Shown here piece after piece: positions 37,501-40,500 of a stretch of DNA of 64,000 nt. The stretch is taken from contig JBBIJY010000015.1 in the NCBI GenBank assembly GCA_037445735.1, forward strand, positions 19,862 to 83,861, in the 5' to 3' direction. Position numbers: made by a program. This stretch comes from Armatimonadota bacterium. Lineage in GTDB: Bacteria; Armatimonadota; Fimbriimonadia; Fimbriimonadales; GBS-DC. How positions within the stretch are numbered: position 1 is the stretch's first letter; every line of letters begins with the position of its first letter.

Positions 37501-40500
37501 AGGGTTAGAAGTGGAGTTCCAGCTGCGCCGCCGCAGCCTGCGCGGTCAGGTGATGAGTGTGGAGCCGGCGAATCGCCCCGACCGCGGGGGCTGGTCCCGA
37601 TACGACATGCGCATCAATCTCCTGCGTAACGGTCGGCTCGAAAGCCTCTATCTCAGCGAGGTCCAGAGCTTTCGGGTGCTCGATGCGCGTATCCAGCAGG
37701 AGCTGGAATCGGCGCTCCGTGCCATCGCCAGCGGGCTGGATGACCGACGCCGCAACATCGAGCTCCGCCTGCAGGGCACGGGTCAGCGGCGCGTTCTGAT
37801 TGGCTACCTGACGGAGATGCCCCAGTGGAAAATGAGCTATCGCCTGGTGATCAGCGAGGGTCAGCCTGCCATCCTGCAGGGCTGGGCGATCGTTGAAAAC
37901 ACCACCGATGAAGATTGGAACAGCGTGCAGTTGCAGCTGGTATCGGGACGCCCGATCAGCTTCACCCAGAACCTGTACGAGCCGTTTTACCCGGCGCGCC
38001 TGCGCTACACGCCGCCCAGCGAAGGTGCGCTCCTTCCGCCCCTGCCACAGGCAAGCCTTGAGCAGTTCCAGCTGGAGCAGCGCGCGCAGGAACCGCCCCG
38101 CCAGATCGGGGAACCGCCCTTCCTGCGCAGGAGTGAATCAGCGGGCGGGTTTGGTGGTGCCGCTCCCGATGTTGTGTTCGGGGGGATGCCCGCGCCGCGC
38201 GAACGCCCACCAGCACCCGGCGAAGCGATGACCCCCGAAGCCGTGCAGCGCTCCGTGCCAGAGATGGCACGCGGGCAGGAACGCGGCGCCCTCTTCGATT
38301 ATCGTGTCGAACAGCCTGTCACCATCGCGCGCCAGCAATCCGCAATGGTGCCCGTCATCAACCGGAGCGTCGCTGCCGAGACCGTCACCTTCTACAACGC
38401 TAAAAATCATCAATATCATCCCTTCTTCGGCATCCGCCTCAAAAACACCACAGGACTGACGCTTATCAGCGGTCCGCTTACGGTCTATCTGAATGGCGCC
38501 TATGGCGGCGACTCCTACATGCAGGTCACCGAGCCTGATAACGAACAGTTCCTGCTCTATGCGCTGGATGTCGGTGTCGAGGTGAATCGGCGCGATCCCA
38601 TCACCATTAAGCGCATGGTTGCCGTGGCTGTAGCAAACGGCATGTTGAAACGGCACTATCGCGAAAGTCGCACCACCGTCTATGAGATCAAGAATCGGGA
38701 TGGTCGCCCGCGCCAGCTGGTGCTGGAGCATCCGCGCGATAACGAATGGCAGCTGGCCGCACCCACCACCAGTGAGCGTACCGCCGACTTCTACCGCTTC
38801 CAGCTGAACCTCCAGCCCCAGCAAGCCACCACCTTCGAAATCAGCGAGGAAAAATCGCTGTTTGAAGAACTTTCGCTGCTCGCGGTCGACAACAACCAGC
38901 TGGTGCAGCTCCTCGCAAGCGGCGAAATTGAGCCCAGGCTCCGTGAGGCGTTCCAGCGAATTGTCCAGATGCGCACCGCGATGTCCGAAACGGAGCGCCA
39001 GATTCAGGCGCGAAACAGCAGAATTCGAGCCATCACCGACGATCAGGCGCGCATCCGCGAAAATATGCGCGCGCTGGATCGAAACTCCGACCTTTACAAA
39101 GAGTATGTCGCCACCCTCTCCCGTCAGGAACGCGAACTCGCCCAACTCCGACAGCAGCTGGAACAGCTCCAGGCGACTTACGATCAGCAGTCGAAGGAGC
39201 TTCGCGACTACATTCAGGGGTTGAACCTCTGATAAGGCTCTGCCCCTCTCCCGGCGCTGCGGGGGAGGGGGGTCGCTCTTACGCCAATCGCTATCGACGG
39301 TCTCTTAGCCGATTCGCTTATCGGCGAGCCAGCCTGTCAGCACGCCGAGCGTCCACAGAATCAGATACAGCCCGATGCACAGGCGGGTCCAGCGGCGCAC
39401 AAAGAGCGGATTGCGGCGTCGATACCACTCAGCGAAGCTAACAGCGAGCATCACGGTTGCGCCTTTCACCCCAAAGAACGCGCTCCACCCGAAGCCCAGC
39501 ACCCAGTTCATAATCGGGTTGAACTCTGTCGCCAGCCCGTTCGTAATCAGCCAGTAGGTGCTGAGCGCGTCAGCCGTGCAGATAAGAATCAGTCCCCAGC
39601 TCTCTTTCAACATGGCGGTCATAGAGGCATTCAGCACCTTTCGTGCCACAGAAGGCTGAGGCTGTTCGAAAAATCCAACCAGAGGCAAGGATGCCCCTCA
39701 CCCCTACCCTCTCCCCAAAGGGGAGAGGGAGAAACGAAGCCCCTCTCCCCCGCACGCGGGGGAGAGGGTACGGGTGAGGGGGCTTCACACAGGCGGATAG
39801 GATGCCCGCGAATTTTCGAACACCCTCCAGAAGGCTTGACTTCGGCGTCCGAGCGGGTATAATAGCCTCTGCGATAACCGCAGACAGCAGGTGTCCCGCT
39901 TCGCGGGCATAATCCGAGCATTCGGTTCGCCTGCCGAGGGATGCGCAAGGGGTCTGGATGTCGGTCGCAAGAGGCGCGTTCGCGCCACGGCGACGGCAAC
40001 GCTGGGTCATTGTGCGAGCCTGCTGGTCTGCACGGCTCGCTTTTCGCATTTAATAACAGGAGGTGAAGCGGATGCCATCGCCCAAAAAGGTGGCACAGGT
40101 GGAACAGATTCGGCAATGGCTCAATCGGGCGCGCGGGCAGATTCTGACCGACTATCGCGGGCTGACCGTGCGTGAGATTACCGACCTGCGCCGTCAGCTG
40201 CGAGCGGTGGGCGCTGACCTGCATGTGGTCAAAAACACGCTCTATCGGCGCGCCGCGGATGGCAACCTGCCGCCCGCACTGGAACCGTACCTGTTCGGAC
40301 CGACGGCGGTCGCCTTCATTCAGGGCGACGAAGCAGCCGCCGCGAAGGTGCTGGTCGAGTTCATCAAGCAGGTGCGCAAATCGGAGGTGAAGGCGCTCGT
40401 GCTGGGTCAGCGGGTCTACCCTGCCAGCGCGGTGGAGGAGCTGGCGAAACTGCCCCCGCGCGAGGTGATGCTGGCACAGCTGCTCGGCGCGATGCAATCG

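Follow-up and report, generated by a model that had tools for sequence, protein, structure and literature searches.

Probable promoter-edge targeting by a MITE and its IS5-superfamily relatives, with a BoxC-type palindrome as passenger

Introduction

TnGBS and ISLre2 (p-MULT 3) and ISKra4 (p-MULT 4) rely on Mutator-type enzymes and have their insertion sites 13-17 bp ahead of -35 boxes, and a contact with RNA polymerase has been proposed for the targeting by TnGBS, according to the accessible text of PMC3942029. Prokaryotic MITEs carry promoters according to the accessible text of the 2024 review PMC10969869, which describes insertion at a host -35 box for none of them. In the IS5 family, the ISH1 subgroup is characterized by a length of 0.9-1.15 kb, one ORF and an 8-9-bp duplication; ISTth7 of Thermus is assigned to this subgroup, and an insertion in ago is described as acquired in the laboratory (PMC6352166, in whose accessible text the word promoter does not occur). 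The BoxC/PIT/TMECO repeat of E. coli has the triplex consensus CCCTCNCCC-N3-6-GGGNGAGGG-N3-GGGNGAGGG, and intrastrand triplex formation by TMECO motifs was shown in vitro (PMC4666352, accessible text).

Here, we describe a 170-bp element that carries an inverted pair of such palindromes and lies immediately upstream of the predicted rplJ-rplL promoter of an Armatimonadota bacterium (genome G000), which the names of its homologues assign to the Fimbriimonadales. The window, i.e. the whole stretch of DNA that was analysed around it, has a length of 64,000 nt. We consider it highly probable that promoter-edge targeting belongs to a clade of elements related to ISAae1 and ISTth7, and that the palindrome is a passenger on one of their MITEs.

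Element and locus

The features of the locus are listed in Table 1. The target duplication, CAGAAGGCT, is perfect over 9 bp, and the two 18-nt arms are 89% complementary to each other. The entire 170-bp element has a fold z of -7.3; no Rfam family was matched at the gathering threshold in 38500-41500. The rplJ product is L10 (NCBIfam NF000955, 160 bits versus a cut-off of 85), and the following ORF is taken to be rplL on the basis of its sequence. The small gene that diverges on the other side of the element matched no NCBIfam family. The same promoter is empty in G022, where it is flanked by the same two genes, and carries a separate end remnant in G020.

Table 1. Features at the rplJ promoter (positions in the 64,000-nt stretch).
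Feature	Position	Strand	Remarks
MITE	39658-39827		170 bp, 18-nt inverted ends; G000 C15:59519-59688
Target site duplication, left copy, 9 bp	39649-39657	+	Same sequence as 39828-39836
Left terminal inverted repeat, 18 bp	39658-39675	+	Motif also at IS5-like IS ends
BoxC/PIT/TMECO palindrome unit 1	39695-39729	-	Strict match to published TMECO consensus
BoxC/TMECO-like palindrome unit 2	39741-39780	+	Inverted to unit 1; 10-nt loop; matches at loop <=12
Right terminal inverted repeat	39810-39827	-	Promoter-facing
Target site duplication, right copy	39828-39836	+	Last base = first T of -35 box
-35 hexamer TTGACT, predicted rplJ-rplL promoter (target)	39836-39841	+
-10 hexamer TATAAT	39858-39863	+	16-nt spacer from -35
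rplJ (L10) and next ORF	40072-41016	+	Both intact despite insertion
Divergent small gene, far side of MITE	39305-39622	-	Neighbour also in MITE-free G022
Free palindrome without MITE ends (contrast case)	39242-39272	.	Convergent gap 400 bp away

With up to three substitutions allowed, the end motif has 90 matches in G000, compared with five and two in two Markov-3 random genomes, and at one substitution or fewer neither random genome contains any. The ends form 27 pairs, which enclose 26 small elements (114-240 bp) and one 684-bp IS with an internal deletion. A 9-11-bp duplication with at most one mismatch flanks 12 of the 26 small elements (five perfect), versus 30 of 1,950 mismatched pairings (1.5%); the other 14 show no duplication at this threshold. 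In the sister genome G021, which has a median gene identity of 95% to G000, the sites corresponding to C20:39693 and C8:100656 are empty and contain a single copy of the duplicated sequence. The 170-bp element is thus a real MITE, as the earlier note on this DNA had described it: it is short, non-coding and multicopy, with inverted ends that it has in common with an IS, and it duplicates a pre-existing site. Pairwise identity among 18 core copies has a median of 88%, so the burst is not recent. Genes of G000 were called anew (2,260 genes); 75 of 76 ends are clear of them and one touches a gene, at its edge only. At the C19 copy, contigs from read run X1, which may be the source sample, break within the MITE, and the promoter-MITE-promoter join there is neither confirmed nor refuted.

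Target sites

In G000, TTGAC is found 7-11 nt outward of 29 of the 76 ends (at 8, 9 or 11), whereas only 67 of 19,941 random intergenic positions (0.34%) have it there. Insertion ahead of -35 boxes, which had been claimed before together with the MITE status and the DDE partner, is supported, and all three are stronger and wider than first stated. The gene downstream is codirectional with the outward TTGAC in 27 of 28 evaluable cases.

Pooling of 284 distinct outward flanks from retained hot-spring or Armatimonadota loci gives TTGAC at offsets 7-11 in 116 flanks (offsets 8-10 in 110) and only 11 matches at all other offsets up to 45; offsets 13-17 account for three flanks. A -10 box follows 29-36 nt out in 74 of the 116. 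Left out of this set are 14 loci from unrelated organisms, which were treated as chance 18-mer matches, a further 31 loci without a title (L124-L154) and all ends that occur in stacks. The offset of TTGAC equals the duplication length minus one in 32 of 34 duplication-bearing elements with TTGAC 6-12 nt out (9/10 in G000, 9/9 for ISTth7 and 14/15 in other genomes), a count in which the loci left out of the 284-flank set were retained. Since the offset tracks the duplication length, one cut has a constant position, separating the two Ts of the hexamer, and the far cut shifts by 1-2 nt.

Both orientations are used, the left end facing the promoter in 15 of 27 cases and the right end in eight of 13. 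In 19 of 22 cases, back-to-back ends are separated by 8-11 nt, forming stacks, and the rpoB and S-layer-like promoters hold elements whose interiors differ between the three species G000, G020 and G022. Among 33 duplication-bearing elements in other genomes, 19 have no full TTGAC on either side. As judged from sequence, the targeting is base-precise and family-wide, extending over Armatimonadota, WOR-3, other hot-spring lineages and ISTth7.

Transposase and named relatives

The partner of the MITE is predicted to be an IS5-superfamily (DDE_Tnp_1) IS related to ISAae1 and ISTth7. The MITE ends are also those of the IS remnants in G000 (C14:30085/30768, C29:31683; C29/C31) and of the reference IS copy L010 in G008, which has 1,026 bp and a single open frame. 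The remnants that the earlier note placed on C14 and C29 are both present, with the same ends as the MITE; no intact transposase gene is seen in G000, since the C14 copy is deleted and contains a stop, and at C29 the contig ends within the copy. Apart from their ends, the palindrome MITE and the IS have no sequence in common. C31:204-410 and one G020 element retain IS interior sequence and hence are deletion derivatives.

The transposase matches Pfam DDE_Tnp_1 (PF01609) with 34 bits against a cut-off of 23, in agreement with the DDE partner proposed previously. Its best NCBIfam model is IS5 (NF033579), with scores of 34-39 bits compared with a cut-off of 140; ISAae1 scores 97 and P0074, a member of the same profile-defined clade, 172. 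The homologues collected number 372. All Pfam and NCBIfam transposase matches are limited to the DDE_Tnp_1, IS5, IS4 and IS982 models. A D-D-E triad is present: Asp122 and Glu259 are nearly invariant and an aspartate at position 201 lies within a GD[KR]LY motif. The predicted structure (pLDDT 77) is an RNase H fold with Tn5 as its best match, with a Z of 13.9 and an rmsd of 8.9 for 281 aligned residues. ISCth4, which we assume to be of the IS256 type, heads the Foldseek list, but with an rmsd of 16 and 11% identity. The transposase was found in 17 of 29 family genomes and the ends in 20. It also matches Aquifex and Thermus plasmids, which contradicts its supposed confinement to the family. Genomes of WOR-3, Caldimicrobium, Thermocrinis and Aquificota contain the ends as well. 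A metagenome scan with a distant homologue returned one locus, which was left out of the counts.

ISAae1, from Aquifex aeolicus plasmid ece1, is annotated as IS5-like and is 32% identical to the transposase over 258 aa. It resembles the G008 IS in its length of ~1 kb and its similar ends, and differs in that its host belongs to another phylum. Its perfect 9-bp duplication is followed by TTTACA..TATACT in the same register; no mention of ISAae1 was found in a literature search. ISTth7 is a weak tblastn match (29-30% identity over 45-73% of the query) of 1,023-1,029 bp, and 13 of its 17 copies are flanked by a duplication that is perfect over 9 bp. At 16 distinct sites on seven Thermus plasmids, offset 8 is occupied by TTGAC in nine (background 0.1%) and by TTG in 13 (background 2%). 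Seven of these 13 TTG sites have no TAnnnT at a spacer of 15-19, including the copy inside ago of a laboratory strain, where TTGACG stands in register but a -10 box is absent. ISTth7 differs from the elements studied here in its end sequence and in having fewer -10-bearing sites. The G008 IS, with its 1,026 bp and one ORF, fits the description of the ISH1 subgroup, although the duplications of the family, at 9-11 bp, are slightly longer than the 8 bp listed.

The palindrome

G000 contains 229 palindrome loci, of which 24 lie between paired ends and 14 near one end. No ends are present at the remainder, which comprises 136 of the 174 intergenic loci and every one of the 55 that are coding or mixed, and the coding copy at C9:81010 lacks them as the earlier note had stated. 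Its two larger claims, that the intergenic palindromes are MITE cargo and that the MITE is their general mobilisation route, are mostly not borne out: the cargo claim is true for one MITE lineage only. It might be argued that the MITE did spread the palindrome and that the end-less copies are decayed MITEs, since 24 of the 26 small paired elements in G000 hold the palindrome and the same palindrome-bearing MITE type is present in sister genome G021. We regard this as very unlikely and already largely refuted. Degenerate ends occur near five of the 136 free palindromes, a frequency at the level of the control (4.3%), and the gene contexts are opposite, with 43 convergent versus eight divergent gaps for free copies and none versus 15 for MITE copies. 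The two counts are also decoupled across genomes: G007, a single-contig genome of 98% completeness, has 124 palindromes, no ends and no transposase match, G019 has 137 palindromes and no ends, and G020 has 19 palindromes and 97 ends (rho 0.31, p 0.11 for 29 genomes that are related to each other). In other genomes, the repeat is carried by six of 77 same-ended small elements, and some of these elements bear other short repeats.

Strict matches to the triplex consensus number 74 in G000, 12 of them in MITEs. Tandem inverted pairs are also present in E. coli. There, however, the copies are always intergenic and unlinked to mobile elements, with no transposase nearby (accessible text of PMC4666352), whereas in G000 the 55 coding or mixed loci lie in or overlap coding sequence and 24 loci ride in the MITE. 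The MITE distributed a single captured BoxC pair over about 40 promoter-edge positions, and the repeat family is not its product. In this lineage, one MITE would have captured an inverted pair of the host repeat and spread it to promoter edges, and the repeat would otherwise spread by a different route. DUF559, presumably a possible mobiliser of the palindrome, has no gene in G000. The single Y1_Tnp match in G000 has no flanking palindromes, and six genes that are flanked by palindromes on both sides resemble ordinary host genes rather than mobilisers.

Discussion

In the mechanism that we propose, ~1-kb IS5-superfamily elements and their MITEs would insert directly in front of sigma70-type promoters. 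One cut would separate the first two Ts of the -35 hexamer, and the second would be made 9-11 bp further upstream. Because the duplication would then rebuild the -35 box, the promoter core would be kept and only the upstream DNA displaced. Each later insertion would hit this spot again and move the earlier elements further out. Against the proposal stand the 14 small elements that lack a duplication, the 19 duplication-bearing elements elsewhere that lack a full TTGAC, the truncated state of the transposase copies in G000 and the restriction of the similarity between palindrome MITE and IS to their ends. The transposase itself may read the TTG(ACA) hexamer in the target DNA, and the surplus of full promoters among surviving sites would arise from promoter accessibility and selection against genic insertions.

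Direct read-out of the -35 box by the transposase is the mechanism that we prefer, with chances that seem to us about evenly balanced, and a mixture with polymerase tethering is possible. Read-out is favoured by the ISTth7 TTG sites without a -10 box and, we infer, by the position of the cut, which falls within a box that sigma region 4 would occupy. As the main alternative, the transpososome could be tethered by promoter-bound sigma70 RNA polymerase holoenzyme, through sigma region 4 or alpha-CTD, by analogy with the polymerase contact proposed for TnGBS in the accessible text of PMC3942029. Intergenic TTGAC sites in G000 are occupied in 24 of 79 cases with a -10 box and in five of 527 without; for matched C-TTGAC[AT] hexamers the figures are 24 of 68 and five of 57 (p=5e-4), a four-fold higher occupancy. 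Flanks without TTG have a -10 box at 29-36 nt in ten of 127 cases, in excess of the two, four and three found in control windows. This dependence on the -10 box, together with correctly spaced -10 boxes at TTG-less flanks, favours a role for RNA polymerase, and the predicted targets include the strong housekeeping promoters of rplJ, rpoB, dnaK and groES (the last three names being our assignments from N-terminal sequences). The same sites that speak for read-out speak against tethering, including the ago copy within coding sequence, as does the position of the cut, and selection alone could enrich real promoters among surviving TTGAC sites. A predicted complex of the transposase with sigmaA region 4 of G008 scored 0.00, which is evidence neither way. 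On balance, tethering strikes us as possible and rather doubtful.

Selection certainly acts, since none of 2,494 coding TTGAC sites is occupied, and in principle it could have kept only promoter-upstream copies of an element that inserts at random. We think this extremely unlikely because selection would set neither a single-base register that tracks duplication length nor stacks of 8-11 nt, and the ago copy keeps the same register. The outward -35 box could also be part of the element, whose own promoter would then lie beyond the apparent inverted repeat and point outward: TTGAC flanks both sides of nine non-ISTth7 elements without a duplication (three in G000 and six elsewhere), and CCCC-TTGAC is recurrent. 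Practically no weight is left for this explanation: in both G021 and G022, the empty sites already contain the -35 box, which refutes it. The duplicated 9-11 nt vary between sites, and unoccupied promoters are likewise C-rich upstream (32/53), so that C-rich duplications mirror the host promoter consensus. Furthermore, the original far flank of rpoB is found next to the C14 IS in G000, in keeping with an exchange of flanks. In G021 the rpoB promoter is contiguous with this DNA, so the flanks in G000 were exchanged, either by element recombination or by mis-assembly.

Breaks of synteny with G021 fall in five of nine element-bearing gaps and in 31 of 234 other gaps of at least 60 bp (p=0.004; 20 of 24 versus 224 of 416 in a looser mode), small numbers from a comparison that covered 1.19 of about 2.7 Mb of G021. 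Insertions that coincide with synteny breaks may shuffle transcription units, and they part housekeeping core promoters from their upstream DNA. If direct read-out by the transposase is true, a compact integrase (~320 aa) would land beside promoters without damage to them, and in hot-spring bacteria at large the insertions and MITEs would give rise to rearrangement breakpoints at the edges of transcription units. The element ends would also mark sigma70 promoters in uncultured phyla. Because the mobility of ISTth7 in laboratory Thermus thermophilus is already established, promoter finding by the transposase is testable in a genetic model.

Comparison with known systems

Like Correia elements, MITEAba12 and QMITE, the MITE is short and non-coding, with IS-shared inverted ends, target duplications and a strong hairpin. 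Our search, which covered literature other than the 2008 ISTth7 paper and ISfinder (where a target preference may be noted), yielded no description of an IS5 element that targets -35 boxes. The closest counterparts are TnGBS, ISLre2 and ISKra4, which likewise keep a fixed distance from the sigmaA -35 boxes downstream of them; according to the accessible text of PMC3942029, those of the ISLre2/ISKra4 type with symmetric ends use both orientations, as does the family studied here. This family differs in its DDE_Tnp_1 enzyme, in its distance of 8-10 bp (range 7-11) and in a duplication that overlaps the hexamer; it has no Mutator-type transposase, and with the 13-17-bp distance seen in three flanks only it falls outside p-MULT 3 and 4. 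Promoter targeting is a known strategy, and here it appears in an unrelated IS5-superfamily clade with a different, base-precise geometry. Should the clade read the sigma70 -35 box directly and cut inside it, which we put forward tentatively, it would represent a second, independent bacterial invention of promoter targeting, by DNA read-out.

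Interiors of the elements and in-frame repeats

MITEs of other lineages that share the ends of the window element contain different short palindromic repeats in their interior, as does one small element of the genome under study (G000), and one or another of six tested motifs is present in 33 of the 77 same-ended small elements from other genomes. In WOR-3 (genome G029, loci L233–L252) the target duplications of MITEs with these ends are longer (10–11 bp), and the distance to the outward -35 box moves together with duplication length. Genome-wide, G000 carries in-frame copies of the GC-rich palindrome BoxC within long genes at 54 loci, with up to six units per locus, which add peptides of the PSPQPSPQRGEG or LSPSGGEGTGEG type.

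Coordinates of the features discussed (C, contigs of G000; L, loci)
Feature	Location	Strand
Same-ended elements with other palindromic interiors	L043; L078; L106; L305; L307; C20:41014-41221	
In-frame BoxC, examples	C9:80997-81168; C8:23106-24554; C20:7970-9692	
IS of the IS5 superfamily	L010:1434-2459; L011:1434-2455	
Transposase frame across right inverted repeat (alignment A1)	L010:1480-2544	
ISTth7	L156:1051-2077	
Stack of IS and small elements	C29:31683-32255; C31:1-410; C14:29967-30768	
rplJ leader	window 39864-40071	
Y1_Tnp-domain gene	C1:174906-175559	-
RpoD-like gene (L299)	C15:16236-17009	

Genomic setting and promoters

Gene order is much shuffled between G000 and its sister genome G021 despite 95% identity; among gaps of at least 60 bp that hold no element and have both genes mapped, 13% are still broken. 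An IS and two small elements form a stack in G000 that spans a contig gap, the C14/C29/C31 joins being ambiguous in the assembly. The 9 nt beyond the IS end on C31 are identical to the left flank of the C29 copy.

The spacer is 18 nt in 46 of the 79 TTGAC promoters predicted across G000, most of which have a C-rich stretch upstream of the -35 box; exact CCCC-TTGAC is rare in coding sequence (6 of 2,494 coding TTGAC sites). The rplJ leader (∼200 nt) is kept in three relatives, gave no Rfam match at the gathering score and may be an L10 autoregulatory leader.

Separately, a Y1_Tnp-domain protein with a fused sigma-region-4-like C-terminus is encoded in a housekeeping neighbourhood, with no flanking repeats around its gene. 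The match of an RpoD-like gene to the family model falls into two segments whose frames differ; either a frameshift or an assembly error may be the cause.

Composition and reading frame of the IS

The right inverted repeat of the IS contains no stop in the transposase frame, which reads through it, so that C-termini differ by insertion site. The 3' half of the L010 and L011 copies is strongly G+T-rich (GC skew +0.6, AT skew -0.5). The Thermus relative ISTth7 is also G+T-rich in this half (GC skew +0.35, AT skew -0.26), and the 5' half is mildly C-rich in all three.
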